This document shows positions 3,393-61,426 of a stretch of 64,000 bases of DNA, in pieces; within the stretch, counting starts at the first letter, position 1; the number at the start of each line of letters is the position of its first letter. This DNA is from Deltaproteobacteria bacterium RIFCSPHIGHO2_01_FULL_43_49 (GTDB lineage: Bacteria > UBA10199 > SPLOWO2-01-44-7). The notes beneath the pieces were generated by a model that saw only the letters and a list, made by a program, of their open reading frames with translations, did not search any database and was not told the DNA's origin. Location: the NCBI GenBank assembly GCA_001798075.1, contig MGRG01000002.1, forward strand, positions 46,631 through 110,630, read 5' to 3'. Both the position numbers and the translations under genes were made by a program.

Positions 3393-4916
3393 AAAATAAA
3401 AATAAACAATAAGGAAGTTGAGGTAGCGGAGGGGACGACGGTTTTGAAGGCAGCGCTGGCCAACAAAGTTGATATCCCTTATTTTTGTTATCACCCCAAA
3501 CTCTCGATTTCCGGCAATTGCCGCATGTGTCTGGTCAACATCAAGGGCCAGAACAAACCGGTCATTTCTTGTCGCGAAAGAGTGCGGGAGGGGATGGAGG
3601 TTGATACCAAATCAGAAGAAGTCAAAAAAATGCAGCAGGGAGTTTTAGAGTTTATTTTGGTCAATCATCCTTTGGATTGTCCTATCTGTGATCAATCGGG
3701 TGAGTGCGATCTGCAGGATAATTATTTTAAATTTTCGAAATTTCCCTCCCGCCTGGAAGATCAAAAAATCCATAAACCCAAAGTCAAATCACTGGGTCCT
3801 CTGGTCACACTTGATGATGAGCGCTGCATTGTCTGCACGAGATGTGTGCGATTTTGCGATGAGGTAGCAGGCACTCATGAACTTTGTGTGACCGAGCGTG
3901 GAGGACACTCCGAACTGACGACTTACCCTGGAAAAGAGTTAAAAAATCCTTATTCACTTTGCACAGTCGATGTTTGCCCCGTGGGAGCACTCACTTCCAC
4001 CGATTTTCGTTTCAAAAAACGGGTCTGGTTTTTGAAAACGACCCCTTCAATTTGTACCGGCTGTGCCACCGGCTGTAACATCAAGATGGATTGGGATGAT
4101 TCGGTGGTTTATCGCTACCGTCCCAGAGAAAATGAGGCGGTCAACCAATGCTGGATGTGCGATGAAGGAAGGCTTTCCTATAAATTTATTAATGATGCGA
4201 ACAGGGTTTTTGAACCTTTGCTCAAAAAACATGGGGAGTTTGAAGAAATAACTTGGGAAGGGGCTCTCAAACATATCGCTGATATTTGCTATGAAAATCC
4301 CAAGGTTCATTATATCGGTGTTTTATCGGCTCAAGCCAGCTGCGAAGAAAATTTCACCCTCCATTCCTTTTTGAAAAATGTTTTTCCAAAAGCCCAATTT
4401 TTGACGACAAAAAAAGAAGTGCCACACCCATCCCACGATGAATTTTTAATCGATGCGGACAAAAACCCCAATTCAAATTTTTTAGAATTGCTTGAAATTA
4501 AAGAAGCAGATGATTTTGCAAAAGAAGGGATATATTTTGTTTTGGAACATTTAACGAATGCTCAGAAAGAGGCCTTGATTATGGCCAAGCCAAAGATGGT
4601 TGTTTGGCTGGCCTCAAACTTAGGGGACGTTTCCCTTGCAGGGGGAACGTCCCCTAAGTTGTCCCCTCCGTTGTGGGCCGATGTGATTTTGCCAAAACCG
4701 ACTTTTGCAGAACAAGAAGGACACTTTATTAACAGACAAAAAAGACTTCAGAAAGCAAACAAGGCCTTCGAACCAAAGGGTCATGCGAGGCCTGTTTGGA
4801 TGGCTCTAGCAGAGCTTTCCAGAAAATTGGATAAGCCATTGGATTGGAATTCTTACCCAAATGTTTTTAAAGAAATGAGTCAGGAACTAAAATGGATTAC
4901 GCAATTGCAGCGCTAA
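3387..4916 (+). CDS. nuoG: NADH-quinone oxidoreductase subunit G (short form, 2Fe-2S plus 4Fe-4S N-terminal module)
   Basis: MVKIKINNKEVEV start at ATG 3387; the ORF-track start 3327 overlaps nuoF. CRMCLV, HPLDCPICDQSGECDLQ, CIVCTRCVRFC and CPVGALTS motifs. Carries an in-frame palindrome at 4618-4659. Confidence 0.85.
   Translation: MVKIKINNKEVEVAEGTTVLKAALANKVDIPYFCYHPKLSISGNCRMCLVNIKGQNKPVISCRERVREGMEVDTKSEEVKKMQQGVLEFILVNHPLDCPICDQSGECDLQDNYFKFSKFPSRLEDQKIHKPKVKSLGPLVTLDDERCIVCTRCVRFCDEVAGTHELCVTERGGHSELTTYPGKELKNPYSLCTVDVCPVGALTSTDFRFKKRVWFLKTTPSICTGCATGCNIKMDWDDSVVYRYRPRENEAVNQCWMCDEGRLSYKFINDANRVFEPLLKKHGEFEEITWEGALKHIADICYENPKVHYIGVLSAQASCEENFTLHSFLKNVFPKAQFLTTKKEVPHPSHDEFLIDADKNPNSNFLELLEIKEADDFAKEGIYFVLEHLTNAQKEALIMAKPKMVVWLASNLGDVSLAGGTSPKLSPPLWADVILPKPTFAEQEGHFINRQKRLQKANKAFEPKGHARPVWMALAELSRKLDKPLDWNSYPNVFKEMSQELKWITQLQR
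4618..4659 (+). repeat. P-type palindromic element (GGGGACGTT...AACGTCCCC), in frame inside nuoG
   Basis: ACTTAGGGGACGTTTCCCTTGCAGGGGGAACGTCCCCTAAGT. Near-perfect inverted repeat, encodes NLGDVSLAGGTSPKLS. Confidence 0.85.
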
Positions 4917-7586: not shown

Positions 7587-8084
7587 ATGATGGAACCGAT
7601 TTTCTTTTATGGTTTTGGGGGGTTGGCGGTGGTCACAGCACTGTTGATGGTGACCAGGGTCAATCCAATTGCCTCGGCGGTTTGGCTGGTGGTCTGCTTT
7701 TTTGCCTTTGCCGCACTTTTTATAACGTTGGAAGCCCATTTTATTGGGGTCATTCAAGTGCTACTCTATGCTGGCGCCATCATGGTTTTGTTTATCTTTG
7801 TGATCATGCTTTTAAATATTGGAGCGGAAGAGCTCAAAGCAAGAACGATGCAGTTTTCAGGACTTTTGGGAGGATTAGTTACTATCTACCTCATTGTTTT
7901 GATCACACTGGGGCTTCTCAAAAATCCAGTCAGATTTTTTGAACCTTTGACGGAAGGGTACGGCTACGTTGCCCCCGTTGGACGATTATTGTTTACAAAA
8001 TATTTAGTGCCGTTTGAGCTGACATCCGTTTTACTTTTGGTTGCAATCGTAGGGTCAGTAGTGATGGGGAAGAGGAAGCTGTAA
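7587..8084 (+). CDS. nuoJ: NADH-quinone oxidoreductase subunit J
   Basis: 165 aa polytopic membrane protein in operon position before nuoK. VLLYAGAIMVLFIFVIMLL segment typical of ND6/NuoJ. Confidence 0.85.
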   Translation: MMEPIFFYGFGGLAVVTALLMVTRVNPIASAVWLVVCFFAFAALFITLEAHFIGVIQVLLYAGAIMVLFIFVIMLLNIGAEELKARTMQFSGLLGGLVTIYLIVLITLGLLKNPVRFFEPLTEGYGYVAPVGRLLFTKYLVPFELTSVLLLVAIVGSVVMGKRKL

Positions 8085-8098
8085 AAAATTAGAAATGA

Positions 8099-8167
8099 AA
8101 AATCAAAAACCAAAAATACAAACTAAGAATAAAAGTTTTTTGTTTTTAATATGTGTTTTTGGTTTTT
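8099..8167. repeat. Inverted pair of degenerate AAAAYCA-type heptamer arrays in the nuoJ-nuoK spacer
   Basis: AAAATCA AAAACCA AAAATAC AAACTAA at 8099-8126. The arm 8105-8120 pairs with 8152-8167 (TGTGTTTTTGGTTTTT) with one mismatch. Confidence 0.7.
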
Positions 8168-8191
8168 AACTTTTAATTTTTTATTTAGTTC

Positions 8192-8499: not shown

Positions 8500-10497
8500 A
8501 TGCTGCGCACACTTTATCAATATATCGCACCGCAGACACTGGCTTGGCTCATTGTTGCCCTTCCATTGGCCGGTGCGACAATCAATGGGTTCTACTCTCT
8601 CGTTGCTTCCAGATTTCACAAACATGCTTCGCACTCATTCACCTCACTCATTGGTTGCGGCCTGCCTGTTCTTTCTTTTGTGATTTCTTTGCTCATTTTT
8701 GTTACTTTAATCGGTTTTTCTGCGGGCCAAGACCCTACCATGATCACCGGCCCGCTTTTTCAGTGGGTGGTGACGGGAAATTTAACAATCGATCTTGGTC
8801 TCAAGTTTGATCAGCTCTCTCTCGTCATGGTCCTCATTGTGACCGGTGTTGGCTCTCTCATCCATATCTATTCGATGGGCTACATGGGGCATGATGAAGG
8901 GTACGCACGTTATTTTTCTTATCTCAATTTATTTTTATTCTTCATGCTCCTTTTGGTTTTGGGAGATAGTCTGGTCCTTCTTTTTGTCGGCTGGGAGGGA
9001 GTGGGGCTCTGTTCTTATTTGCTAATTGGTTTTTGGTTTGAAGATCCTACAAAAGCGGCCGCCGGGAAAAAAGCCTTTATTGTGAACCGAATAGGCGATG
9101 CCGGCTTTTTGCTGGGGATGTTTTTTATTTATGCAACACTTTCCTCACACAATCTGCCGCCGACCGAACATCAATACAACTTTTTTAATTTTGAGGTGAT
9201 CAAACACCATTCGGCTTATTTGATGCCGGTTGCTACACCCATTTGTTTGCTTTTATTTTTGGGGGCTTGCGGAAAGTCGGCACAAATTCCTCTTTATGTT
9301 TGGCTACCCGATGCCATGGCCGGTCCCACACCTGTTTCCGCCCTCATCCATGCCGCAACAATGGTGACCGCCGGTATCTACATGATCGCAAGGCTTAACT
9401 TTTTGTATGTGTTGAGCCCAACTGCGATGCAGGTTGTGGCGTGGATTGGAGCTATTACCGCCATCTTTGCCGCAACGATTGGTCTCACACAAACCGATAT
9501 CAAAAAAGTTCTGGCCTATTCCACCATTTCGCAATTGGGCTACATGTTTTTGGCCTTGGGTGTGGGGGCTTTTAGTGCTGCGATTTTTCATTTGATGACT
9601 CATGCCTTTTTTAAGGCCCTTTTGTTCTTGGGGGCGGGCTCTGTGATTCACGCCATGGGTGGAGAGCAAGATATTCGTAATTTCGGTGGCCTGAAAGAAA
9701 AAATGCCGATTACCGCTTGGACTTTTGTGATTGGCGCTGCAGCCATTTCCGGGATTTTTCCTTTCGCCGGATTTTTCAGCAAAGATGCCATTTTGTGGCA
9801 CACTTTTCATGGGGGTCATATCAGTCTTTGGTTGATTGGATTTGTGGGGGCGGGGCTCACCGCATTTTATATGTTTAGGCTCGTTGGCATGACTTTTTTT
9901 GGCCAACCTCAGATGGGAAGAGGCGAGTGGCAAAAGGTACATGAGTCCCCTCCATCGATGGGGTTTGTCCTTCTTTTCTTAGGTGTCTTGTCGGTGATTG
10001 GCGGCTGGGTCGGAATCCCTGAGGCCTTTGGTGGTGGGGATCATTTTCATCACTGGCTCTCCGGGGTTTTTGGAAAAATGGTCGTGCACGAGGGGATGGA
10101 AGAGGGTCACGCTGCCGAAATTATTTTAACCGTTGTCTCTTTGCTTTGGTCACTCCATTTTGCAATCCTTGCCAGTGTTATTTATGCGCAACGACGCGAA
10201 TGGCCCACCAAAATGGCCGAGAAATTTCAGTTTTTATACAAACTGATCTTCAACAAATATTGGATCGATGAACTCTATGATTTTATCATTGTGAGGCCTC
10301 TTGTCACTCTTTCCGAAAAAGTTTTTTGGGGAGTGATTGATGCCAAAGTGATTGATCAATATGGGGTGCACGGTGCCGGTCGGCTCATGATTTTTTGGAA
10401 TCGCTGTGTCACTGCCGTGCAAACGGGAGTCGTGCAACAGTATCTTTTATTTTTTGTGATTGGTGTTGTTTTGATTCTTTGGGGGTTTGTGTTTTAA
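8500..10497 (+). CDS. nuoL: NADH-quinone oxidoreductase subunit L
   Basis: 665 aa antiporter-like subunit. WEGVGLCSYLLIGFW and GKSAQIPLYVWLPDAMAGPTPVSALIHAATMV motifs. Confidence 0.95.
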   Translation: MLRTLYQYIAPQTLAWLIVALPLAGATINGFYSLVASRFHKHASHSFTSLIGCGLPVLSFVISLLIFVTLIGFSAGQDPTMITGPLFQWVVTGNLTIDLGLKFDQLSLVMVLIVTGVGSLIHIYSMGYMGHDEGYARYFSYLNLFLFFMLLLVLGDSLVLLFVGWEGVGLCSYLLIGFWFEDPTKAAAGKKAFIVNRIGDAGFLLGMFFIYATLSSHNLPPTEHQYNFFNFEVIKHHSAYLMPVATPICLLLFLGACGKSAQIPLYVWLPDAMAGPTPVSALIHAATMVTAGIYMIARLNFLYVLSPTAMQVVAWIGAITAIFAATIGLTQTDIKKVLAYSTISQLGYMFLALGVGAFSAAIFHLMTHAFFKALLFLGAGSVIHAMGGEQDIRNFGGLKEKMPITAWTFVIGAAAISGIFPFAGFFSKDAILWHTFHGGHISLWLIGFVGAGLTAFYMFRLVGMTFFGQPQMGRGEWQKVHESPPSMGFVLLFLGVLSVIGGWVGIPEAFGGGDHFHHWLSGVFGKMVVHEGMEEGHAAEIILTVVSLLWSLHFAILASVIYAQRREWPTKMAEKFQFLYKLIFNKYWIDELYDFIIVRPLVTLSEKVFWGVIDAKVIDQYGVHGAGRLMIFWNRCVTAVQTGVVQQYLLFFVIGVVLILWGFVF

Positions 10498-12058: not shown

Positions 12059-13526
12059 TTGGTTAGTTTTTTTGCGGCAGACCCTGCCTTTGCTTCTTCC
12101 TTTGGGTGGGGGCGGTTTTTTATTATTAGTGGGCCCATTTTTTAAGAGGTCTCATCGTTTTAATTTTATCTTTTCTATTGCGATTGCCTTACTCGCCCTT
12201 TTCTTCGCCTGGCAAGAATGGCTTGGAGCCACTAATCAAACTGTCAACCTTTTACTTTTTGATCGTTTCACCTATCTTTTTGCCATTTTATTTTTGATAG
12301 CCCTTATTTTAACGCTGTTACTTTCTTATTCTTATTTGGAATCGTTTGGATTAGTCCGGCCGGAATATTATGCCCTCCTTTTATTTGCCGTTTTTGGGAT
12401 GATGTGCATGGTGGCGGGTCACGATTTGATGGTTGTCTTTTTAGGTTTAGAAGTGATGTCGGTTTCTGTCTATGTTTTGGCCGGTTTTCAAAGAAGCAAT
12501 GTTTTAAGTGTAGAAGCGGCATTAAAATATTTTTTGGTGGGGGCTTTTGCCAGTTCTTTTTTGCTCATGGGAATTGCCTTTATCTATGGGGCCACGGGTA
12601 CAACCGATTTAATTGTTCTTCATCAAAAAGGATTAGGAATGTTAGCCGGTGAGACAAGAGTTTATGCCTTGGTGGGGTTGAGTCTGCTCGCCGTTGGTCT
12701 TGGATTTAAAATCGCCCTCGTCCCTTTTCACTTCTGGGCGGCGGATGTTTATCACGGGGCCCCTGTTATTGTGACGACATTCATGGCCACCGCCGTGAAA
12801 GCCGCCGGCTTTGGCGCCATTTTGAGAGTTGTTTGGGCATTGTTTCAATGGGAACCACTCCTTTTTGCTAACATGATATGGGTGGCTTCTGTCTTGACGA
12901 TGACGATTGGCAACATTGCGGCCCTCACACAGAAAAATTTGAAACGAATGCTTGCCTATTCTTCAATCGCCCATGCCGGTTATGCAATCCTTCCATTAGT
13001 TGCTTTTAGCAAGCAAGGAGCTTCGGTTACTTCCAGTATTTCTTTTTACATGTTGGCCTACATTTTGATGACAGTAGGGGCCTTTGCCGTTTTGATTGCT
13101 TTGTCGGAAAAGGAAGAAAAATGCACTATTCAAGATTTGTCAGGCCTGGGAACTAGAAAACCATTCTTGGCTTTTTCAATGACCCTTTTTCTTTTGTCTT
13201 TAACCGGCATTCCCCCAACGCTTGGGTTTTTTGGTAAATATTATCTGTTTTTGCAAGCTGTTCAGGCTGGCTACATTTGGCTTGCGGTGATTGGTGTCAT
13301 TAATAGTGTGATTTCGGTCTATTATTATTTGGGCCCCGTTGTTGCGATGTATTTTTCAAAAGAAACTGCTGACCAAAAAGTAGGGCCTACTTATTGGTCA
13401 CCCCAAGCCGTATTGGTTGTGATTTGGTTTACTTTTTTAGGAGTTAGCCTTTTTGGCCTTTTCCCATCCAATCTTTTGGACCTGATCCAAACTTCCGTTT
13501 CTTCTTGGCTAGTGGCTGGGAAATAA
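12033..13526 (+). CDS. nuoN: NADH-quinone oxidoreductase subunit N
   Basis: 497 aa antiporter-like subunit. FGLEVMSVSVYVLAG and FHFWAADVYHGAP motifs. Last gene of the operon. Confidence 0.9.
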   Translation: MMQELLKIDWLVFLRQTLPLLLPLGGGGFLLLVGPFFKRSHRFNFIFSIAIALLALFFAWQEWLGATNQTVNLLLFDRFTYLFAILFLIALILTLLLSYSYLESFGLVRPEYYALLLFAVFGMMCMVAGHDLMVVFLGLEVMSVSVYVLAGFQRSNVLSVEAALKYFLVGAFASSFLLMGIAFIYGATGTTDLIVLHQKGLGMLAGETRVYALVGLSLLAVGLGFKIALVPFHFWAADVYHGAPVIVTTFMATAVKAAGFGAILRVVWALFQWEPLLFANMIWVASVLTMTIGNIAALTQKNLKRMLAYSSIAHAGYAILPLVAFSKQGASVTSSISFYMLAYILMTVGAFAVLIALSEKEEKCTIQDLSGLGTRKPFLAFSMTLFLLSLTGIPPTLGFFGKYYLFLQAVQAGYIWLAVIGVINSVISVYYYLGPVVAMYFSKETADQKVGPTYWSPQAVLVVIWFTFLGVSLFGLFPSNLLDLIQTSVSSWLVAGK

Positions 13527-16041: not shown

Positions 16042-16226
16042 CCGCGAGGTGGATTCGCAAAACCGTTAGCAATTTGGGTGAGAAAGGCGTCTCGGAGGCG
16101 CTTGCGACAGCGGGGGCTATAATCATGCAAGCGCCGAGAGACGAGTGGGTGTTTTGGGGCGCTCCCCGAAACAACCCACGTCCTTTCGAATCCCAAATTG
16201 CGGAAGGTTTTGCGATATATGTCGCG
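16042..16226 (+). repeat. H3 Y-shaped structured repeat, copy 1 (variant)
   Basis: Basal stems CGCAAAACC/GGTTTTGCG and GCAATTTGGG/CCCAAATTGC. Apical hairpin GCGCTTGC...GCAAGCGC with a GGGGGCTATAAT loop. 3' side hairpin GAGTGGGTGTTTTGGGGCGCTCCCCGAAACAACCCACGTC, then CTTTCGAA. Confidence 0.8.
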
Positions 16227-17069: not shown

Positions 17070-17234
17070 GTGACGAAAGCTTCCGCTCGTTGGATTCTCA
17101 GGGACGTGGGTTGGTTTGGGGAGAGCCCCAAACCACCCACTCCGCTCTCCCCCGCCAAAATATGAATAGCCCCCACAAAGAGTTGGCGGGGTCCGAGAGG
17201 CCCTTCGAATCCAACTCGCTCGCGCTTTCGTCAC
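17070..17234 (-). repeat. H3 Y-shaped structured repeat, copy 2 (reverse orientation), nested in an outer hairpin 17048-17258
   Basis: The reverse complement reads GTGACGAAAGC...GAGTGGGTGGTTTGGGGCTCTCCCCAAACCAACCCACGTC...GCTTTCGTCAC, with the same module order as copies 1, 3 and 4. Confidence 0.8.
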
Positions 17235-17308: not shown

Positions 17309-17329
17309 CACAATTTAGTTGGGAGAAAT

Positions 17330-17480
17330 GAAAAGGCGCGAACGAGCTAGGTGAGAAGGTGTCCACAGTCCCGCCACACTGATTGGGGGCCTAATACCTG
17401 GCGGAACGAGGATAAAGTGAGATTTTGGGGGCCTTCCCAAAATCGAGCGGCCTTCGAACCTGGCGAGTGGAAGCCTTTTC
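17330..17480 (+). repeat. H3 Y-shaped structured repeat, copy 3
   Basis: GAAAAGGC-GCG-AACGAG...CCGCCA(loop with TTGGGGGCCTAATA)TGGCGG...GAGATTTTGGGGGCCTTCCCAAAATC...CCTTCGAACCTGG-CGAGTG-GAAGCCTTTTC. Confidence 0.8.
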
Positions 17481-17529
17481 ATTTTGAATCAATCAACAAA
17501 AGCATTTTTCGAAAGGGTCGGGGAAGGGT

Positions 17530-19428
17530 TTATTTAATCTTTGACCCCACTGCCACATCCTTTGTGGGAGTTAAAATAGAAATCACATTGGCATCGCTGG
17601 CGGCGAGGAGCATGCCGTTGGATTCCACACCTCGAATTTTGACTGGTTTTAAATTGATCACAACCACAATTTTTCTGCCGACTAATTCTTCAGGGGGATA
17701 GTGTTGGGCAATGCCGGCTACAATTTGGCGTTTTTCATTTCCGAGATCAATTTGGAGTTTTAGCAACTTATCTGCTCCTTCTATTTTTTCTGCTGAAATA
17801 ACCTGTGCGACTCTCATGTCCACTTTTGCAAAGTCGGTGATGTCTATTGTGGGGGCTCGCGTCGCCCCCTCCGCCGGCAAAGCCGTCGGAGCCTCCCCCT
17901 CTCGCGAGCCTTGCTCGCTAGGCTTTTTTGATTGTTCCATAAGTTTCTCCTTTGGTTCTTCGATTCTTGGAAAAAGGTTTGGGCCTTTTTGGATGTTTGA
18001 GCCAAATTGCTCCAAGATTTTTTCCGCCGTACTTGGCAGAAATGGTTTTAGCAAATTTGCAATGGTTCGAATCGATTCTGCTACGTTATATAAAATTTCC
18101 TTCCGTGTTTGAGTTTCAGTAATTTTCCACGGTTTATTTTCGTTAATATAACGGTCTGTTTGGGTAATCCCTTCCCAAATGGCAGCGAGGGCTTCATGAA
18201 AGGCAATATCCCCCGACTTCATTTCCAGAAACCCCCCAACTTTTTTCTTTAAACCTTTCATTTTTTTGGCCAGAGGATTTGTTTTTCCTTTGACAGGAGA
18301 GATCACACCCTTTTGATACTGCTCAATCATTCCCAATGTCCTGCTCACCAAATTTCCAAGGCCGTTGGCCAAATCACCGTTGTAGCGACGGATGAAATCA
18401 TCCCATGTAAAATCACTATCCTGACCAAAACTGGAAGTCCTGAGCAAATAATAACGAAGGGCATCGGCTCCATAAGCATCAACAACATCCATCGGGGTCA
18501 CAACATTGCCCAACGTCTTGCTCATCTTTTCGCCTCTCAAGTAGACAAAGCCGTGGCCGAAAACAGATTTGGGCAAAGGTATTTTGGCCGCCATCAGCAT
18601 GGCAGGCCAAATGACACAATGAAAGCGGGTGATATCTTTGCCAATCACATGCAGATCGGCCGGCCACCACTTCTTAAATTTTGATTTTTGATTTTTGATT
18701 TTTGATTTTTCTTCGCCATAGCCAATTGCCGTGATGTAATTAATCAGTGCGTCAAACCAGACATAAACAGCATGCGTTTTGTCAAACGGAACAGGAATAC
18801 CCCATTTGACCGAAGCCCTGGAGACACTGATATCTTGAAGCCCCCCTTCGATTAGGCGCAAGATTTCATTGCGGCGCATTGTCGGCAAAATAAATTCAGA
18901 ATTTTTTTTAATGTGTTTGTAGAGTTTATCTTGATATTTTGAGAGTTTAAAAAAATAGTTTTCTTCATGGAGCCATTTTGGTTTCGATTTGTGGTTGGGG
19001 CACAATCCATCCACCAAATCTTTTTCAGTAAAGTAGGCTTCGCACGATTCACAATACCAACCCTCATACGGTTTTTTATAAATGTCACCGTTATCGAAAA
19101 GAGTTTGAAAAAGTCTTTCGACCCCCTTTTTGTGGCGCTCCTCGGAGGTCTGAATAAAATCGTCATAAGAAATTTCCAATTTTTTCCAGATCGCTTCAAA
19201 TTTTTGGCGCATCTGATCACAATAGATTTTGGGTTCCAGACCCGCCTGTCTGGCGGCCTTTTCGACATTTACACTATGCTCATCATTTCCCATCAGGAAA
19301 TGAACTTTGAAGCCTTGCATCCTTTTGGAACGGGCCAAGACATCCGCTCCAATTTTTTCATAGGCGGTTCCAATGTGGGGTAGATTATTGACGTAATCAA
19401 TGGCTGTCGTAATGTAGAATTTCTTCAT
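17530..19428 (-). CDS. metG: Methionine--tRNA ligase with C-terminal Trbp111-like tRNA-binding domain
   Basis: YVNNLPHIGTAYEKI (HIGH-type) and KMSKTLGN (KMSKS) motifs, Zn knuckle CESCEAYF...CPNH. C-terminal DMRVAQVISAEKIEGADKLLKLQIDLG. Contains two in-frame repeat insertions. Confidence 0.95.
   Translation of the reverse strand: MKKFYITTAIDYVNNLPHIGTAYEKIGADVLARSKRMQGFKVHFLMGNDEHSVNVEKAARQAGLEPKIYCDQMRQKFEAIWKKLEISYDDFIQTSEERHKKGVERLFQTLFDNGDIYKKPYEGWYCESCEAYFTEKDLVDGLCPNHKSKPKWLHEENYFFKLSKYQDKLYKHIKKNSEFILPTMRRNEILRLIEGGLQDISVSRASVKWGIPVPFDKTHAVYVWFDALINYITAIGYGEEKSKIKNQKSKFKKWWPADLHVIGKDITRFHCVIWPAMLMAAKIPLPKSVFGHGFVYLRGEKMSKTLGNVVTPMDVVDAYGADALRYYLLRTSSFGQDSDFTWDDFIRRYNGDLANGLGNLVSRTLGMIEQYQKGVISPVKGKTNPLAKKMKGLKKKVGGFLEMKSGDIAFHEALAAIWEGITQTDRYINENKPWKITETQTRKEILYNVAESIRTIANLLKPFLPSTAEKILEQFGSNIQKGPNLFPRIEEPKEKLMEQSKKPSEQGSREGEAPTALPAEGATRAPTIDITDFAKVDMRVAQVISAEKIEGADKLLKLQIDLGNEKRQIVAGIAQHYPPEELVGRKIVVVINLKPVKIRGVESNGMLLAASDANVISILTPTKDVAVGSKIK
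17851..17923 (-). repeat. GC-rich cassette of three tri-loop or short-loop mini-hairpins, in frame in the metG linker
   Basis: GGGGGC-TCGCGTC-GCCCCC, CCGCCGGC-AAA-GCCGTCGG and GCGAGC-CTT-GCTCGC. Encodes SEQGSREGEAPTALPAEGATRAP. Much more GC-rich than the surrounding sequence. Confidence 0.75.
18679..18710 (-). repeat. Heptamer array (AAAATCA)x4 plus a partial unit, in frame in metG
   Basis: The plus strand reads TTTTGAT x4 then TTTT. Encodes KSKIKNQKSK. Confidence 0.9.
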
Positions 19429-19750: not shown

Positions 19751-19852
19751 GTCGGAAACAAGCTTCATTCAAAAAATAAGGTAGGTCACTTACGCAATTT
19801 ATTTTGCAAGTATCTCTTTCAAGGGTGTGGGGTAGTAAAGACAAAAGGTAAA

Positions 19853-20013
19853 AGTTGCCACGCGAACGAGGTGGGTGAGAAAAACCTCTCGGAACCCAGC
19901 CAAACCTTATGGGGGTTACAATAATTTGGCGGGGTGAGAGTGGAGTGGGCATTTTGGGGCTCTCCCCAAAATGACCCACGTCTTTTCGAACCCACCAAGT
20001 GGAAGTGGCAACT
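19853..20013 (+). repeat. H3 Y-shaped structured repeat, copy 4
   Basis: AGTTGCCAC-GCG-AACGAG-GTGGGT...CCCAGCCAAA(loop TATGGGGGTTACAATAA)TTTGGCGGGG...GAGTGGGCATTTTGGGGCTCTCCCCAAAATGACCCACGTC-TTTTCGAA-CCCAC-CAAGTG-GAAGTGGCAACT. Confidence 0.8.
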
Positions 20014-20035
20014 TTTAAGTTTGAAACTCCTTTTT

Positions 20036-21537: not shown

Positions 21538-21618
21538 GGTGGTGGGTCCTGTCCCTCCGTGTTTTTGTGGGGGCCCCTAACTAAACCCCACAACAAACAC
21601 TCCGGGCCACCCACCACC
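21538..21618 (+). repeat. H1 hairpin repeat, copy 1 (core plus GGTGGTGGG/CCCACCACC layer)
   Basis: Core CCTGTCCCTCCGTGTTTTTGTGGGGGCCCCTAACTAAACCCCACAACAAACACTCCGGGCC. Confidence 0.85.
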
Positions 21619-21727
21619 CAAGCCGGCTACCCTGAATCGCCAAATTTATCAAGGATTTTAATGGGTTATAAATTTTTTGGCTGGGAAGCAACTTTGGGGT
21701 ATTCCAAAACCGATAACTATTAAGGAA

Positions 21728-21955
21728 ATGGCTATTAAACCTCTGTCATTATCTTTTGAATCTATCGTTAGGGGTGTGCAAGGTGTGCAACCTGAGCAGG
21801 CCCTTCTGACCGATTTTGCCCAAGTCAGAAAGGTTGATAGCCCAGAAGAAGAGCAGACTGTTGTTTCTACTTCACCAGAACAGATGCTTCCTGAAGACAC
21901 TTTCGTTGACGCAACACTCGATCCACTCAAAAATTACCGCTCACTGATTTCTTAA
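21728..21955 (+). CDS. Hypothetical small acidic protein
   Basis: ATG 21728 with AAGGA 3 nt upstream is preferred over the TTG at 21677. 75 aa, no recognisable motif. Confidence 0.35.
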   Translation: MAIKPLSLSFESIVRGVQGVQPEQALLTDFAQVRKVDSPEEEQTVVSTSPEQMLPEDTFVDATLDPLKNYRSLIS

Positions 21956-22004
21956 AAAAAATCTTCTCCGGCCTTTGCGAAAAACGTTTTCATAATACAG
22001 AGTG

Positions 22005-22090
22005 GAGCTTCGGGGTCCTGTCCCTCCGTGTTTTCGTGGGGGCCCCTAACTAAACCCCACGACAAACACTCCGGGCCACCCCTTCGCTTC
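22005..22090 (+). repeat. H1 hairpin repeat, copy 2 (core plus GAGCTTCGGGGT/ACCCCTTCGCTTC layer)
   Basis: Same core carrying a compensated T-A to C-G change (TTTTCGTGGGG / CCCCACGACAAA). Confidence 0.85.
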
Positions 22091-22108
22091 GATCACACTA
22101 CACTGAAA

Positions 22109-22151
22109 CGTTTTTCGCAGGGGTGCTCCGAACTATAGCCATAGTTCGTAG
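22109..22151 (+). repeat. Linker hairpin L
   Basis: CGTTTTTCGCAGGGGTGCTCCGAACTATAGCCATAGTTCGTAG. Its 5' part pairs with CCTTTGCGAAAAACG at 21972-21986, enclosing H1 copy 2. Confidence 0.75.
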
Positions 22152-22173
22152 TTTTTGTGTGCCAGGTGGGTGA

Positions 22174-22362
22174 GGACAGGAGTGGGGTGGACAAAACATT
22201 TGTGCGGGAACGAGGGCGTATCGAGTCAATAAAAATAATATTCGTTTCTGCAGATAGAGCTGACGGCAGGTAAGATACTATCTGCATCTTTATGAAACGA
22301 AATTATTTTTTTGACGAGATAGCCCGAAGTGGAGCACCGTTTTGAACACCCCACTCCTGCCC
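22174..22362 (+). repeat. H2 long-hairpin repeat (about 190 nt), copy 1
   Basis: GGACAGGAGTGGGG...TGCAGATAG-AGCTGACGGCAGGTAAGATA-CTATCTGCA...CCCCACTCCTGCCC. Confidence 0.85.
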
Positions 22363-22380
22363 GAAAGCCATCCACAATTT

Positions 22381-25182: not shown

Positions 25183-25549
25183 TCTTTTTCTGAAGCATGT
25201 GTTGGATTTTTCTCACCAACGATCTTAGGTGAAATGGTTTTGAAACATAGTCGTCGGCACCGTGAGTGAGGCCTTCGAGTCGATCGGCCTGAGCATCTCT
25301 TGCAGAAAGAATTAGAATGAGAATATCTTTCGTTTCTGGATTTTCTTTCAGACGATTGCAAACTTCAATCCCGGAGACCTTCGGCATCATCACATCAAGT
25401 AAAATGAGTGAAGGTCTTTTGAGAGCAATTTTTTTGAATGCCTCTTCAGCACTATAAGCACTTTCGATTTCATACCCTTCTTTGGAGAGGAGCTTCCCCA
25501 AAACGGTATGGATTTGAGGCTCGTCATCAACGATTAGAATATTTACCAT
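25175..25549 (-). CDS. Response regulator, receiver domain only (CheY-like)
   Basis: ILIVDDEP, LILLDVMMPKVSG, ILILSA and KPF motifs. 124 aa. Confidence 0.9.
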   Translation of the reverse strand: MVNILIVDDEPQIHTVLGKLLSKEGYEIESAYSAEEAFKKIALKRPSLILLDVMMPKVSGIEVCNRLKENPETKDILILILSARDAQADRLEGLTHGADDYVSKPFHLRSLVRKIQHMLQKKTI

Positions 25550-25551
25550 AG

Positions 25552-25572
25552 GGTACCAGGTACCTGGCGGTA
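25552..25572. repeat. GGTACCAGGTACCTGGCGGTA, a half-copy of the 51936-51974 palindrome, 3 nt from the response-regulator start codon
   Basis: Shares 21 nt with the right half of the 39-nt palindrome and contains the nested palindromes GGTACC and CCAGGTACCTGG. Confidence 0.8.
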
Positions 25573-28133: not shown

Positions 28134-28176
28134 CATCTTCTCCGACCTTTGCGAAAAACGCTTTCATAAATAGATG

Positions 28177-28356
28177 GAGCTTCGGGGTCTGAATCAATGA
28201 GTTGAAAATGACAGATTCTGTGTGGAGTGGCGGATCCTGCCCCTCCGTGTTACTGTGGGGGCCCCTAACTAAACCCCACAGCAACACTGCGGGCCACCCA
28301 CCACTCCACCATTTGTGCGTCATTTTCAACCTTTGAAAGCAGTTACCCCTTCGCTC
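28177..28356 (+). repeat. H1 hairpin repeat, copy 3 (expanded, four nested layers)
   Basis: GAGCTTCGGGGT / AGTTGAAAATGAC / GGAGTGGCGG / core / CCACCCACCACTCC / GTCATTTTCAAC / ACCCCTTCGCTC. Confidence 0.85.
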
Positions 28357-28373
28357 CAATCATTATGCTGATG

Positions 28374-28419
28374 CGTTTTTCGCAAGGGTGCTCCAAACTA
28401 TAGCAGTAGTTCGGAGTGC
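28374..28419 (+). repeat. Linker hairpin L
   Basis: CGTTTTTCGCAAGGGTGCTCCAAACTATAGCAGTAGTTCGGAGTGC. Its 5' part pairs with CCTTTGCGAAAAACG at 28146-28160. Confidence 0.75.
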
Positions 28420-28438
28420 TTGTGTGCCAATTGCGCTA

Positions 28439-28629
28439 GGGCAGGAGGTGGGGGTGTGAAAAACATTGTGCGGGAACGAGGGCGTATTGAGTCAAATAAA
28501 ATAATATTCGTTTCTGCAGATAGAGCTGACGGCAGGTAAGATACTATCTGCATCTTTTGAAACGAAATTATTTTTTTGACGAAATAGCCCGAAGTGAAGC
28601 ACCGTTTTGAACACCCCCACCTCCTGCCC
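28439..28629 (+). repeat. H2 long-hairpin repeat, copy 2
   Basis: The basal stem is changed on both arms (CAGGAGGTGGGGG / CCCCCACCTCCTG). The apical loop is identical to copies 1 and 3. Confidence 0.85.
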
Positions 28630-28661
28630 GGAAGCAATTGGTAGATAGGTCGGAGAAGGGT

Positions 28662-37438: not shown

Positions 37439-37531
37439 CAACAAATCGACGGACCCTGTCCCTCCGTGTTTTCGTGGGGGCCCCTAACTAAACCCCACGA
37501 CAAACACTACGGGCCACCCATCGATTTGTTG
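37439..37531 (+). repeat. H1 hairpin repeat, copy 4 (core inside CAACAAATCGA/TCGATTTGTTG arms)
   Basis: Lies in the 127-nt divergent spacer between the EamA gene and the acs-like gene and ends 8 nt before the acs-like ATG. Confidence 0.85.
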
Positions 37532-37538
37532 TTAATTT

Positions 37539-39464
37539 ATGCAAAATATAATCTGGAAACCTTCTACGGAGTTCTTAAAAAATAGCAACATTGCAATCTT
37601 CATGAAGAAGCATGGAATTGGCTCTTATGAAGAGCTGATTAAGCGTTCGACTCAAGATATCGATTGGTTTTGGAAAGCTTGTATAGAAGATTTGGGTGTT
37701 GAGTGGATCAAGCCCTACACAAAACTCTATGATAGTTCAAAAGGCTTTGCCTGGACAAAATGGTTTGTAGGAGGAGAGCTCAATATTATTCAGAATTGTT
37801 TGGACAGGCACGCTCTGAATAGAGGCGAGGCGACCGCGTTAATTTGGGAAGCCGATGATGGAGAAACAAAAACTTTTTCCTATTCCAAACTCAATTTAGA
37901 GATCAAACGCCTGGGCAATGCCCTTTTGGGTTCCGGAATCAAAAAGGGAGATGCGGTTGGGATTTATCTTCCGATGATTCCGGAAGTAGTGGTGTCGCTC
38001 CTTGCCTGTTTCAAAATTGGTGCGGTTGCGGTTCCTGTTTTCTCTGGCTTTGGGCCGGAGGCTTTGAAGGTTCGGTTGATGGATTCTGAAGCAAAAGTTT
38101 TGATCACAGCAGATGGGGCTTATCGGCGTGGCAAGATGATTTCGATCAAACCCAATGCTGATCAAGCGATTCAAGATTTAAAAATTAAAACCCAGTTGGT
38201 GGTCAAACGAACGGGTCAAGAGGTTGCTTGGAAAGAAGGGAGAGATTTATGGTGGCACGATGTGCTCCCCTATCATTCCCCTTCTTGTGGAACCTATCCC
38301 CTCGATTCTGAACACCCTTGCATGGTTTTGTACACCTCTGGGACAACGGGAAAACCAAAGGGTTGTGTGCATACGCAGGCAGGTGCCCTCGCACAAATCG
38401 CGAAGGAATTAAAATATGCCTTTGATGTGAAACCAAATGACAAATTTTTCTGGTTCACCGATATGGGTTGGATGATGGGGCCTTGGGAGGTGATTGGCGT
38501 TTTATTTCAAGGAGCAACCCTTTTTATCTATGAAGGGGCACCAGATTATCCAGAGCCGGACCGAGTCTGGAAAATGGTTGAAAAACATCAACTCACTCAT
38601 TTAGGAATTTCGCCGACCGCTATTCGTTTGTTGAAAAAAAGCTCGGATGATTGGGTGAACAAACATGAAATGAAGTCTTTAAGGATTTTGGGTTCGACCG
38701 GTGAACCTTGGGATCCGGAATCTTACAACTGGTTTTTTGAGAAAGTTGGCAAAAAGCGGTGTCCCATCATTAATATATCGGGTGGGACGGAATTGGTTGG
38801 GTGCCTATTATCGCCTTATCCTATTACTGACTTAAAACCTTGCACATTGCGGGGCCCAGGTCTTGGAATGGATATTGATGTCTTTAATGAAGAAGGGAAA
38901 TCAGTGCGAGGCGAGGTTGGTTTTTTAGTCTGCAAAAAACCGTTTCCTTCCATGACTCGTGGATTTTTGAAAGATCGAGAGCGCTATTTAGAAACTTATT
39001 TTTCAAAGTGGCTCAATGTTTGGAATCATGGTGATTGGGCTTATGTGGACGGCGATGGTTTCTGGTTTTTGCAAGGGAGAGCCGATGATACGATCAAAAT
39101 TGCCGGCAAAAGAGTGGGACCTGCAGAGGTAGAATCGGCTTTAAATGGACATCCAGCTGTTGCTGAATCGGCGGCCATTGGAGTGCCTCATGATATAAAA
39201 GGTGAGTCACTGGTTTGTTTTGTAGTCCTGAAAGACCCCCAAAAGGCGTCCGACGCCTTTCGTGAGGAGCTAAAAAATGTGGTTATTCAAGTGCTTGGCA
39301 AAACTTTGGCCCCAGAAAAAATCGAGTTTGTCCCAGCCCTTCCCAAAACCCGCTCCGCAAAAATTGTCCGCGGTGCTATTCGGAAAAAGTATCTCGGCCA
39401 ACCTTTGGGTGATACGACGAGTATTGAAAACCCAGAAACACTAGACAACTTAAAAATTCATTAG
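37539..39464 (+). CDS. Acetyl-CoA synthetase-like AMP-forming acyl-CoA ligase
   Basis: YTSGTTGKPKG AMP-binding motif, GDWAYVDGDGFWFLQGRADD and LPKTRSAKIVR motifs. 641 aa. Confidence 0.85.
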   Translation: MQNIIWKPSTEFLKNSNIAIFMKKHGIGSYEELIKRSTQDIDWFWKACIEDLGVEWIKPYTKLYDSSKGFAWTKWFVGGELNIIQNCLDRHALNRGEATALIWEADDGETKTFSYSKLNLEIKRLGNALLGSGIKKGDAVGIYLPMIPEVVVSLLACFKIGAVAVPVFSGFGPEALKVRLMDSEAKVLITADGAYRRGKMISIKPNADQAIQDLKIKTQLVVKRTGQEVAWKEGRDLWWHDVLPYHSPSCGTYPLDSEHPCMVLYTSGTTGKPKGCVHTQAGALAQIAKELKYAFDVKPNDKFFWFTDMGWMMGPWEVIGVLFQGATLFIYEGAPDYPEPDRVWKMVEKHQLTHLGISPTAIRLLKKSSDDWVNKHEMKSLRILGSTGEPWDPESYNWFFEKVGKKRCPIINISGGTELVGCLLSPYPITDLKPCTLRGPGLGMDIDVFNEEGKSVRGEVGFLVCKKPFPSMTRGFLKDRERYLETYFSKWLNVWNHGDWAYVDGDGFWFLQGRADDTIKIAGKRVGPAEVESALNGHPAVAESAAIGVPHDIKGESLVCFVVLKDPQKASDAFREELKNVVIQVLGKTLAPEKIEFVPALPKTRSAKIVRGAIRKKYLGQPLGDTTSIENPETLDNLKIH

Positions 39465-42337: not shown

Positions 42338-42440
42338 CTTTGTTTGGAGCGAAGGGGTGGCCCGGAGTGTTTGTTGTGGGGTTTAGTTAGGGGCCCCCAC
42401 AAAAACACGGAGGGACAGGACCCCGAAGCTCCAAACAAAG
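42338..42440 (-). repeat. H1 hairpin repeat, copy 5 (reverse orientation; core plus GAGC..GGGGT layer plus CTTTGTTTG/CAAACAAAG arms)
   Basis: Starts 14 nt upstream of the ldcA ATG and generates the spurious N-terminal ORF extension GSCPSVFLWGPLTKPHNKHSGPP. Confidence 0.85.
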
Positions 42441-50203: not shown

Positions 50204-50268
50204 TGCGGTATCAAAGTATTAAAACGGGTCAAGGCTTAATGTAGAAATCGTTTTTAATCGGTGAGTTG

Positions 50269-50451
50269 GAGCTTCGGGGTTTCAATTGATCAGTTGAAAA
50301 TGACGGGCTTTATTTGGAGTGGCGGGTCCTGTCCCTCTGTGTTTTTGTGGGGGCCCCTAACTAAACCCCACAACAAACACTCCGGGCCACCCACCACTCC
50401 ACCAATCATCCGTCATTTTCAACTCTTGAGGATAGGCCACCCCTTCGCCCC
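50269..50451 (+). repeat. H1 hairpin repeat, copy 6 (expanded, four nested layers)
   Basis: Same layer order as copy 3 (28177-28356). Confidence 0.85.
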
Positions 50452-50522: not shown

Positions 50523-50712
50523 GGGCAGGAGTGGGGATGGGCAAAACATCGTGCGGGAACGAGGGCGTATTGAGTCAATAAAAATCATATTCGTTTCTGC
50601 AGATAGAGCTGACGGCAGGTAAGATACTATCTGCATCTTTTGAAACGAAATGATTTTTTTGACGAGATAGCCCGAAGTGGAGCACAGTTTTGAACACGCC
50701 CCACTCCTGCCC
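50523..50712 (+). repeat. H2 long-hairpin repeat, copy 3
   Basis: Carries the compensated change AATCAT / ATGATT where copies 1 and 2 have AATAAT / ATTATT. The apical loop is identical. Confidence 0.85.
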
Positions 50713-50752: not shown

Positions 50753-51319
50753 TTAATCTTGAAAAAAAGTTCTGGCGACCAAGATGGTGGCCGCGATATC
50801 ATCAGCTAGATGCAAAGCGGCGCCAGCTCTGACCGAATTCACTATTTTTGCTGCTTTTGCAGCAGCGCCAATGGCAAAACCGGCCCCTAGCAAAGTAGCA
50901 TCGGCCAAGGTCACGCCAAATTGTGAAGCGCTTTTATTGGTATAGGCGTTATAGGCACCGGCGATGATGAGACCGACAGAGACACCAGCTAAAAACCACC
51001 CCACAGGATTCCATATCAAAGCTGCTGTTATCGCTGCTGCTGTGGCACTTGTCATAAGAACAGGGCTTTCTGTAAAGGAACTTCCCAAATCGGAAAATCT
51101 TTTTTTATAACCACCCCAAACAGTTTCTTGGGAACTATTTAGGTTTTGAAAAATGGATGGGTCCTGCCAGCCGCTTGGGTCCGTCTCCCCAAAAAGGGGC
51201 CCCTCGGACTCATCGCGGCTGTCACCCATCCATTTTTCATGACAATTATGATGAGTGTGAACACTAATACCAAAACCACCTGTTTCTCTATTGAAGGACA
51301 AACCACCACATCCAGACAT
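50753..51319 (-). CDS. Hypothetical membrane protein, Cys/His-rich N-terminus plus glycine-zipper TM region
   Basis: MSGCGG...HTHHNCHEKW N-terminus. C-terminal GxxxG/A-rich helices (AGVSVGLIIAGAYNAY, LLGAGFAIGAAAKAA). Lies 41 nt downstream of the DtxR-like gene on the same strand. Confidence 0.55.
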   Translation of the reverse strand: MSGCGGLSFNRETGGFGISVHTHHNCHEKWMGDSRDESEGPLFGETDPSGWQDPSIFQNLNSSQETVWGGYKKRFSDLGSSFTESPVLMTSATAAAITAALIWNPVGWFLAGVSVGLIIAGAYNAYTNKSASQFGVTLADATLLGAGFAIGAAAKAAKIVNSVRAGAALHLADDIAATILVARTFFQD

Positions 51320-51935: not shown

Positions 51936-51974
51936 ATAAATACCGCCAGGTACCAGGTACCTGGCGGTATTTAT
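51936..51974. repeat. Perfect 39-nt palindrome (19-nt arms, 1-nt centre) in the dtxR-like/mraZ divergent region
   Basis: ATAAATACCGCCAGGTACC A GGTACCTGGCGGTATTTAT. Confidence 0.9.
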
Positions 51975-57720: not shown

Positions 57721-57749
57721 CGAATCGCTAGCGAGTTTATAAAGGGTGT

Positions 57750-57916
57750 GGTGAAAAAGTCGCTTCCGGGATGCGTTTTGAGAAAAGACGCGGTTCCCGC
57801 CGGGTCGTCCCGGCGGGACCGCTCGGCTCTCGCCCATTTTATCTTTATTTCCCGTTTGTGAAAATGGGCTGCGAGACGCTTTTCTCAAAACGCATCCCTC
57901 GCGCGACTTTTTCACC
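57750..57916 (+). repeat. Branched (Y-shaped) palindromic element between murE and murF
   Basis: GGTGAAAAAGTCGC/GCGACTTTTTCACC and GGGATGCGTTTTGAGAAAAG/CTTTTCTCAAAACGCATCCC enclose two hairpins: GGTTCCCGCCGGG-TCGT-CCCGGCGGGACC and CTCGCCCATTTT...AAAATGGGCTGCGAG. Confidence 0.8.
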
Positions 57917-57938
57917 AGTTCCATAAGCGATGGGGGTT

Positions 57939-61396: not shown

Positions 61397-61426
61397 GGGG
61401 ACGTTCCCCTGCAGGGGAACGTCCCC
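61397..61426 (+). repeat. P-type palindromic element, in frame inside murD
   Basis: GGGGACGTTCCCCTGCAGGGGAACGTCCCC is a perfect 30-nt palindrome. Same core and same reading frame as the nuoG copy (SGDVPLQGNVPL). Confidence 0.9.

Follow-up and report, generated by a model that had tools for sequence, protein, structure and literature searches.

A recurrent hairpin, H1, and its concentric outer arms in the intergenic spacers of an uncultured groundwater 'Deltaproteobacteria' bacterium

The 64,000-nucleotide stretch of Deltaproteobacteria bacterium RIFCSPHIGHO2_01_FULL_43_49 analysed here (the window) carries six copies of an imperfect hairpin, H1, between its housekeeping genes, wrapped in differing sets of palindromic outer arms. 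What kind of element is this, and how have its copies come to lie where they do? The explanation that we favour, at a probability of roughly 55%, is that an uncultured groundwater 'Deltaproteobacteria' clade has its own superfamily of non-coding hairpin repeats in intergenic DNA, of the repetitive extragenic palindromic (REP) or miniature inverted-repeat transposable element (MITE) kind, and that H1 is the commonest of them. H1 works like these repeats without belonging to any described family. Each copy appears to be built of concentric modules: an apex stem-loop, a conserved base and outer layers (c, d, b, e and T, from the core outward, or a clamp). As judged from sequence comparisons, new copies arrive complete with their arms, even to the mismatches in these; they come to lie between genes without target-site duplication, and they are absent from the same neighbourhoods in relatives.

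The H1 core and its distribution

All of the H1 copies in the window share the 21-nt loop GGGGGCCCCTAACTAAACCCC, which has exact matches at 21569, 22038, 28257, 37476 and 50349 on the forward strand and at 42378 on the reverse strand, compared with none in 100 dinucleotide shuffles. The six copies and the invariant loop described in an earlier note, which was made from the sequence alone, are thus confirmed. Each match lies inside an imperfect hairpin of about 71 nt in a spacer of housekeeping genes. The positions that the note had given as core starts are real sites, and all of the arms that it listed are present, but these positions mark the outermost arm seen and not the core. The extents of the copies, and their cores as delimited with a covariance model, are as follows (b, c and d denote outer layers).

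Copy 1: 21538..21618, forward strand; core 21543-21613; c-type arms GGTGGTGGG/CCCACCACC; spacer of a divergent gene pair, tmk (13 nt to its start codon) and an open reading frame (ORF) of 92 aa
Copy 2: 22004..22090, forward strand; core 22012-22082 within layer b (GGAGCTTCGGGG/CCCCTTCGCTTC)
Copy 3: 28176..28357, forward strand; core 28231-28300; layers c, d and b around the core; inter-layer spacers unpaired and differing from copy to copy
Copy 4: 37439..37531, forward strand; core 37450-37520; arms CAACAAATCGA/TCGATTTGTTG; spacer between the divergent EamA-type transporter gene and acs, with the acs start codon 8 nt past the 3' arm
Copy 5: 42338..42440, reverse strand; core 42354-42424; layer b plus a private 6-bp palindrome extension (CTTTGT/ACAAAG, outside TTGGAGC/GCTCCAA); upstream of an ldcA-like gene
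Copy 6: 50268..50451, forward strand; core 50323-50393; layers c, d and b around the core

Every copy is intergenic, and the neighbouring genes are tmk, pepA, a CDP-alcohol phosphatidyltransferase gene, bamA, the EamA-type transporter gene, acs and the ldcA-like gene.

The consensus fold reads, on the 5' side, GGGGU, unpaired CCU, GUCC, unpaired CUCC, a 14-bp stem and a 13-nt loop, and on the 3' side the stem arm with one bulged C, unpaired UCC, GGGC, unpaired C and ACCCC. H1 is a single hairpin, and its arms are not palindromes themselves. The bulged C had been reported for all copies; it is missing at 28231-28300, through a 1-nt deletion in the 3' arm, and is present in the other window copies. 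Among 29 distinct cores, standard pairs occupy 95% of the stem cells, and pairing in slid-partner controls does not exceed 54%. Double-changed cells number 30, compared with 11.2 +/- 2.4 in shuffles (0/500 as high), and the covariation score is 0.139 compared with 0.079 (0/500). The compensated stem changes seen earlier are borne out: two adjacent pairs have changed from U-A to C-G in 10 and 8 of these cores, respectively, and a third from U-A to G-C in 2, and U.G and C.A intermediates are found as well. The H1 stem is under a pairing constraint; since the copies are mutually related, the covariation figures show this constraint and not an independent origin of the double changes. The wobble and mismatch statistics favour neither strand.

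Forty-two distinct full copies were found with the covariance model in about 330 kb of non-redundant related contigs (approximately one per 8 kb), and an exact-loop scan of JGI metagenome contigs gave 25 loci. Further loci were reached by using spurious gene-caller ORFs on the repeats as search handles. The pseudo-protein in the H1 frame led to two database entries only, each either of this strain or lacking a contig, and that of a rod-like repeat, X (see below), gave loci L038-L051. The exact loop has no match in 185,579 GTDB representative genomes or in IMG/VR, and the window has no Rfam 15 match at gathering thresholds. Nine H1 copies at nine unrelated loci, with differing flanks, have the same score of 102.9 bits, which is consistent with one identical 71-nt core of the b type.

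The window sequence is that of contig MGRW01000013.1 (GCA_001798335.1), and the same strain is present in several Rifle-aquifer assemblies; the other assemblies of the locus (L026-L030, L037 and L038) are from this strain and are >99.9% identical. The nearest species representatives are metagenome-assembled genomes labelled 'Deltaproteobacteria bacterium', with PepA identities of 62-70%. The next Tmk relatives (63-74% identity) keep the order pepA, small ORF, tmk, and their intergenic DNA is unalignable. The gap between pepA and the small ORF holds a 425-nt composite in the window, whereas in the relatives these genes overlap or abut, or are separated by 18-95 nt; relative L031 has no spacer at the site of composite 2. 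The H1 family was not found in the syntenic relatives L031 and L033-L036 (62-74% protein identity). It follows that the family is young or restricted to a narrow clade, and that the copies are gains relative to those genomes.

One of these relatives, L035, has other intergenic repeats at the syntenic pepA/tmk spacers (3400-3500 and 3840-3920), namely a GGGGAGGTAGATCATGATCATCTACC palindrome at one and repeats of the CAGAAG(A/T) type at the other. The group as a whole may therefore be prone to spacers rich in hairpins, whose families turn over.

Outer layers, shared junctions and composite repeats

The arms were analysed by aligning the 5' flank of each copy with the reverse complement of its 3' flank. 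Watson-Crick pairing is 73% at arm positions 4-8 and 83% at positions 9-14, compared with 36% and 42%, respectively, when partners are shuffled. The flanks of all copies, on inspection, are inverted repeats, with no direct repeats of the kind left by target-site duplication, in agreement with the earlier description. The arms resolve into the following modules.

Layer b: TTGGAGCTTCGGGG/CCCCTTCGCTCCAA, with a symmetric TTC/TTC internal loop in every case, including at unrelated loci
Layer c: GGAGTGGCGGG/CCCACCACTCC, with a C.A mismatch in every case
Layer d: GTTGAAAATGACGGG/CCGTCATTTTCAAC
Layer e (in composites): GCGAAAAACGC/GCGTTTTTCGC, with the variant e' GCAATCGC/GCGATTGC
Layer T (in composites, outermost): CTTCTCCGRCC/GGYCGGAGAAG
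Clamp: GGTGAAAAA-N5-GGG ... CCC-N5'-TTTTTCACC (TGAAAAA-N5-GGG...CCC-N5'-TTTTTCA); the commonest version, f (GTAGTAGG/CCCACTAC), keeps one A.C mismatch at at least five unrelated loci

A copy carries between zero and five outer layers, and the order T > e > b > d > c > core has no exception that we found; the unit measures 71 nt as a bare core and 80-245 nt with layers. Where a copy has several layers, these are conserved in their paired parts, whereas the unpaired spacers between them have freely diverged, and the N5 block of the clamp, 5 bp beside the junction, is hypervariable yet complementary. The clamp GGTGAAAAAGT.../...ACTTTTTCACC and layer b recur, while the terminal layer varies by copy and several arms are private; the clamp GGTGAAAAAGT/ACTTTTTCACC and layer b could serve as terminal inverted repeats. 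Private pairing is the minority: the copy at 42338-42440 lengthens b by six perfect pairs, and that at L006 5491-5561 has a private 5-bp lengthening of b and a compensated G-to-A change within it. Most arms are not copy-specific, as some had been called earlier, but belong to a few recurrent layers whose order does not change. The note had proposed to look for empty hairpins; none of the b, c, d, e or clamp type is present in about 380 kb. Because the same arm mismatches occur at unrelated loci, the order of layers is fixed and no layer hairpin is seen empty, the arms are best read as element-borne, and we argue that they travel with the element and are neither found at the target nor made at insertion.

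The base and the clamp are not confined to H1. The conserved H1 base has an asymmetric internal loop, GGG-U-CCU-G...C-C-A-CCC, and related hairpins, among them a seventh in the window (H3) that had been overlooked, share parts of this architecture.

H3: 51147..51239, forward strand; clamp TGAAAAA-TGGAT-GGG / CCC-ATCCA-TTTTTCA; junction TCCTG...TGTCA as in H1
H5: 57749..57917, forward strand; branched 169-nt hairpin; outer clamp TGGTGAAAAAGTCGC/GCGACTTTTTCACCA; interior unrelated
TGCACGCCCTCCCNACAGATCGGGCTGACA-apex hairpins: L039 10415-10482; L007 ~150-260; L044 ~17500-17570; L050 20042-20109

H3 (93 nt) has a 63-nt interior unlike that of H1, with the apex CCCCAAAAAGGGG, and a predicted folding energy of -61 kcal/mol (z-score -8.8). 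H5 lies in the spacer of two co-directional genes, with -112 kcal/mol and a z-score of -11. The alternative apex TGCACGCCCTCCCNACAGATCGGGCTGACA sits on H1-type bases and layers in L039, L007, L044 and L050, and these hairpins appear to form a sister family on the H1 scaffold. At least four kinds of interior are found within the clamp (H1, H3, H5 at 57749 and an H2-like interior in L005; H5 and L005 have the clamp alone), and the junction TCCTG...CCA is common to at least four core types: H1, the apex2 type, H3 and H4 (L006 5346). Both H3 and H4 have the junction GGG-TCCTG ... (C/T)CA-CCC with clamp-like arms around unrelated interiors. The asymmetric junction and the clamp are thus the features conserved across the superfamily; if the end hairpins of IS608 and the attC sites of integrons are a guide, such conservation is what we would expect of the recognition site of an enzyme acting on a folded strand.

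H3 falls within the call of a 188-aa ORF (50753-51319, reverse strand) that matches no protein family, and the 5' part of this ORF is therefore probably spurious.

H1 copies 2, 3 and 6 lie within composite repeats of 420-530 nt, as do about 40% of all copies. The composite order is T5, e5, b5, (d5, c5), H1 core, (c3, d3), b3, e3, small hairpin, X and T3.

Composite 2: 21958..22380, forward strand; motif CTTCTCCGGCC at 21963-21973; e at 21977-21986 with 22109-22118; small hairpin 22125-22151; X 22174-22362
Composite 3: 28134..28661, forward strand; closed by CTTCTCCGACC (28137-28147) with GGTCGGAGAAG (28648-28658)
X rod of composite 6: 50523..50712, forward strand; outer stem GGGCAGGAGTGGGG/CCCCACTCCTGCCC

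Composite 2 occupies the entire spacer between the convergent 92-aa ORF and pepA, with layer b and H1 inside e. The copy at 22012-22082 had earlier been credited with a GAGCTTCGGGGT layer only; its further parts are the outer pair GCGAAAAACG/CGTTTTTCGC and, on the left, a terminal motif. Composite 3 consists of an H1 rod of about 245 nt that includes e (28145-28161 with 28373-28389), a small hairpin (28390-28416) and X (28427-28641), and it fills the spacer between a convergent PIP-synthase-like gene and bamA exactly, from stop codon to stop codon. Its predicted fold is a three-way junction of -272 kcal/mol (z-score -18; -268 kcal/mol for the other strand), and a permissive E-value search against Rfam gave chance-level microRNA and snoRNA matches only.

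X is a rod-like repeat of 190-215 nt found at 14 distinct loci on several contigs, with a centre of about 165 nt that is >95% identical; it has no Rfam match. It lies 3' of H1, in the same orientation, in 9/9 composites holding both. Since X has different hairpin modules as its partners in L040 and L050, and L024 has X but no H1 with it, the composite is a mosaic of modules. The earlier note had allowed that all copies might be fragments of one longer known element: three of the six window copies are indeed part of something longer, but the composite matches no known insertion sequence (IS), plasmid or phage sequence, and the plasmid and phage collections hold no match to H1/X composites.

These repeats have practical consequences, as they fill entire intergenic spacers, break assemblies and give rise to spurious ORF calls in public annotations (68-aa and 79-aa 'proteins'); on X, gene callers place spurious ORFs of 51-132 aa. 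At the left boundary of X (L044, L047 and L049), short contigs with the same X pseudo-ORF have left flanks that differ. L047 and L049 may be repeat-induced assembly chimeras or may reflect real recombination, and short repeat-bearing contigs in these metagenomes call for caution.

Both arms of a repeat tend to change together. The X outer stem has mirrored indels (-3/-3 in L039, -6/-6 in L020, and -2/-2 in window copy 2 and L008) and compensated substitutions (GGGAG/CTCCC and GGACAGG/CCTGTCC), and its arm lengths are correlated (r = 0.85, permutation p = 0.005, n = 12). Mirrored changes are also seen in the e/e' pair and in the H1 upper stem (L014 903-971). Other copies are lopsided: L009 has b5, d5 and c5 on the left and b3 alone on the right, d3 of L002 is decayed, L021 has an additional b3, and L003 has three tandem 5' half-arms. 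Template switching at imperfect inverted-repeat arms homogenises and expands them and can produce compensatory changes in one step (PMC7202029, PMC8794818, PMC13100816). The arm patterns here fit such arm-to-arm templated correction, and would fit strong selection for pairing as well. The outward growth of palindromes suggested earlier is likewise in keeping with the compensated substitutions, the mirrored indels, the one-armed L009, L002 and L021, and the private 5-6-bp extensions. Fold-back (self-primed) synthesis of the arms was considered and rejected, since bulges, internal loops and arm mismatches are faithfully copied across loci.

How the copies may have arisen

If H1 is a REP- or MITE-like repeat, it would spread as DNA, mobilised in trans by an enzyme that reads the folded single strand, with the conserved bulge and the internal loops or junction as recognition features; a RAYT-type (REP-associated tyrosine transposase) enzyme of the Y1/HUH class would be the candidate. 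After insertion, concerted evolution of the arms would follow from intrastrand template switching or hairpin-templated repair, from selection for pairing, or from the two together, giving compensated substitutions, mirrored indels and an occasional private outward extension of the palindrome, and layers would be lost symmetrically through one-armed intermediates. Multi-layer copies would combine nesting of element in element with membership of the larger X composite. Such nesting is plausible because one base carries at least two apexes, one clamp encloses at least four interiors, and homologous d and c layers are nested in the four-layer copies. To this extent the earlier proposal of insertion into the loops of pre-existing hairpins survives, but no empty hairpin was seen in about 380 kb and the arms appear to be inherited with the element.

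The clamp-type copies, in which a strong stem stands between an A-run and a T-run, would probably act as bidirectional terminators or 3'-end stabilisers of the flanking genes. Copies of this form are found in L016, L019, L025 and L040 and at 51147 in the window; their stems enclose at least 60 nt, and not a 3-8-nt loop. The b and c types have no T-run, and classical perfect-stem terminators are scarce in these sequences.

The search for an enzyme gave one candidate. The related contig L039 (12342-12953) encodes a protein of 203 aa with matches to the model of REP-associated tyrosine transposases (76.9 bits, E 1.4e-21) and to Pfam Y1_Tnp, and its gene lies 1.8 kb from a composite. A RAYT-like gene, of the Y1/HUH class for which the note had proposed to assay the genome, is thus present in a related contig, but its flanks carry a different repeat, the small palindrome AAAAGGCGTCSGACGCCTTTT. 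This palindrome also occurs in L004, in L014, elsewhere in L039, and in the window at 39244-39259, within the acs frame.

A number of observations weigh against the explanation that we favour. The score of the RAYT-like protein is slightly below the curated cut-off of 80 bits, and the gene region (12150-13010) is flanked by three small AAAAGGCGTCSGACGCCTTTT palindromes and not by H1, so that no link to H1 is shown; no transposase is linked to H1 at all. The ORFs of the first ~280 kb gave no Y1 gene, in a weak test (phmmer, with IS200 TnpA and E. coli RAYT queries). Copy orientation agrees with local GC skew in 15/32 cases, that is, without correlation, although a bias would be expected of lagging-strand single-stranded DNA transposition of the IS200/IS605 kind; a strand-based model is also disfavoured by the wobble statistics, which prefer neither strand, and by inconsistent orientation relative to genes (on crude ORF calls). 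The core measures at least 71 nt, two to three times the length of a REP, and is not a REP doublet; as for a terminator role, three window copies lie in divergent promoter regions. Filled and empty sites were not obtained at nucleotide resolution, as the assemblies of the locus are >99.9% identical and the next relatives reach at most 74% (Tmk). Template switching and selection are inseparable on the present data, and since specific mismatches and bulges persist, homogenisation is incomplete or countered by selection, which argues against an efficient process.

A different history, the first of the two options in the note, would make the core, or its apex alone, a small hairpin able to move by structure-specific integration at hairpin tips, whether of clamp/REP-like hairpins or of further copies of itself, with the layers as the record of its insertions. 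The two unrelated apexes on a single base-and-layer scaffold, the four or more interiors in one clamp and the four or more core types on one junction all speak for it, and the d and c/f layers, seemingly homologous variants of GGTGAAAAA-N5-GGG, are yet nested in the same hairpin. In L023 and L009 the sequence after d5 is GGGGCCT/GGGACCT, and in L023 d3 comes after ATCACCC; these look like remnants of an older H1 junction, although they are short (4-7 nt). Di Nocera et al. (PMC3733652) also describe REPs 'inserted within' palindromes. However, random nesting does not predict a strictly fixed layer order, no clamp or b, c, d or e hairpin is empty in the ~380 kb, and identical arm mismatches at unrelated loci indicate that arm and core are copied as one unit, all of which leaves this history unlikely. 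A stronger version, in which the whole superfamily is a self-nesting, structure-targeted mobile system whose enzyme reads GGG-U-CCU-G ... C-C-A-CCC and puts hairpins into hairpin tips, with template switching then symmetrising and extending the arms, is doubtful too. Were it true, terminator-like clamps and 250-nt rods would be built de novo by a mutational mechanism, and not by selection base pair by base pair.

Alternatively, H1 and the composites could be functional structured RNAs, such as a small RNA in many copies or cis-acting leaders, terminators or stabilisers of 3' ends, selected for their fold and multiplied by duplication or recruitment, not transposition. Covariation with U.G intermediates, the invariant loop, the conserved internal loops and the extreme predicted stability speak for such RNAs; the A-run/T-run clamps resemble bidirectional intrinsic terminators, in sequences where classical perfect-stem ones are otherwise scarce, and the composites are placed exactly between convergent stop codons. 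We nevertheless give this proposal little weight. No Rfam family matches, no promoter-like site was found, the two strands fold equally well (-272 and -268 kcal/mol), neither is preferred in the wobble and mismatch statistics, and orientation to flanking genes is inconsistent (noisy ORF calls). Conservation of stem sequence with drifting unpaired spacers is the reverse of most functional RNAs, and the nine copies scoring 102.9 bits at unrelated loci, consistent with an identical 71-nt core, point to recent copying. The palindromy might instead reflect double-stranded sites for a dimeric protein, for example a nucleoid protein or gyrase, as with the bacterial interspersed mosaic elements (BIMEs) of E. 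coli. Stem sequences are conserved beyond what pairing asks, the loop contains the palindrome GGGGCCCC, and the modules have a mosaic, BIME-like organisation; but compensatory changes, mirrored indels and conserved bulges are marks of a folded single strand and not of a duplex, and as the origin of H1 this is very improbable. A role as duplex binding sites is compatible with H1 being a REP- or MITE-like repeat.

Comparison with known repeats and other inverted repeats

Several classes of bacterial repeat share some of these properties. BIMEs of E. coli and the intergenic mosaics of Neisseria draw on a small number of module types that tend to follow certain orders, and many lie between genes that converge or run in the same direction; they are the closest organisational analogues of the T-e-b-H1-hairpin-X composite; BIME modules lie side by side in alternating orientation, whereas those of H1 are concentric. 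ERIC/IRU, RUP, Correia/NEMIS and Nezha elements are non-coding, multicopy repeats of 70-250 nt that form long RNA hairpins and can affect mRNA stability or termination, and some variants of ERIC carry insertions at fixed internal points. Hairpin MITEs have constant terminal inverted repeats, usually a TA or other short target duplication, and a recognisable parent IS family. ERIC-type hairpin MITEs are nearest to H1 in size, but H1 has no target duplication, and no parent autonomous IS with the same ends was found in about 380 kb or among plasmids or phages. Integron attC sites and the end hairpins of IS200/IS605 are folded single-stranded substrates in which the recombinase reads extrahelical bases and internal loops. 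H1 is alike in keeping its bulged C and 3x1 internal loop across families, and unlike in having no cassette array, integrase, pair of left- and right-end hairpins, adjacent tnpA/tnpB or GC-skew bias. An integron attC array was rejected, as the copies are single, scattered among housekeeping genes and in both orientations; membership of retrons, of IS200/IS605 ends and of known RNAs was also rejected.

The REP and REPIN repeats associated with RAYTs share more with H1. As described in the literature (PMC3116915, PMC3337134, PMC3733652), they are high-copy, imperfect intergenic palindromes, often situated after genes, in lineage-specific families with compensated stem changes, conserved bulges and tails and no target-site duplication, and a RAYT-like gene is likewise present in a contig related to the H1 window. 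The GTAG/CTAC in the f-clamp arms and GACG/CGTC in the d-clamp arms recall REP tags, and the CCA that closes the 3' junction resembles the 'tails' found in tagged REPs; the H1 GTAG/CGTC motifs are, however, not universal (there are none in b and c) and are paired, not unpaired. REPs measure 20-40 nt, whereas H1 is 71 nt bare and 80-245 nt layered (two to six times as long), and a REPIN is an inverted doublet of two REPs where H1 is a single long hairpin. The RAYT gene of a REP system has that system's repeat on its two sides in inverted orientation, whereas the L039 gene is flanked by AAAAGGCGTCSGACGCCTTTT. REPs are not known to have up to five concentric layers in fixed order.

The closest single precedent is given by enclosed REPs. 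According to Di Nocera et al. (PMC3733652), the units of Anabaena GTAG-15 and Halothiobacillus CGTC-1 always lie in larger, family-specific palindromes whose empty forms were not found. One palindrome encloses each family in that account, whereas H1 has several nested layers, a hypervariable yet complementary 5 bp by the junction and unrelated interiors in one clamp. What is new in H1 is the set of fixed-order concentric layers, the complementary hypervariable N5, the single junction with several interiors and the mirrored arm indels. Should the modular build hold, H1 would be a test case for why REP-like units sit in larger palindromes never seen empty, and for whether compensated changes and mirrored indels arise by selection or by one-step template switching. 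The conserved junction, recurring in several unrelated interiors, is a testable candidate site for a structure-specific enzyme acting on single-stranded DNA.

Other inverted repeats are present in the window. Four long ones (16055-16215, 17070-17234, 17326-17484 and 19844-20022) have arms of 24-40 nt with 74-88% complementarity and 91-113 nt between them. Their arm motifs are related (GCGAACGAG..GGTGAGAA / TTCGAACC..GCGAGTGGAAG) and also occur beside X in L041 and L050; the repeat at 19844-20022 is within a 188-aa ORF that has no Pfam match. Perfect or near-perfect palindromes with a spacer of zero or 1 nt, a kind usually unstable in bacteria, lie at 4617-4660, 61397-61426, 51936-51974 and 25539-25572; they include GGGGACGTTCCCCTG|CAGGGGAACGTCCCC, present twice and both times in a long ORF, and ATAAATACCGCCAGGTACC|GGTACCTGGCGGTATTTAT. 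Finally, an AT-rich, low-complexity quasi-palindrome at 8082-8186, with arms of about 49 nt and 77-80% complementarity, occupies the spacer before the gene at 8500.

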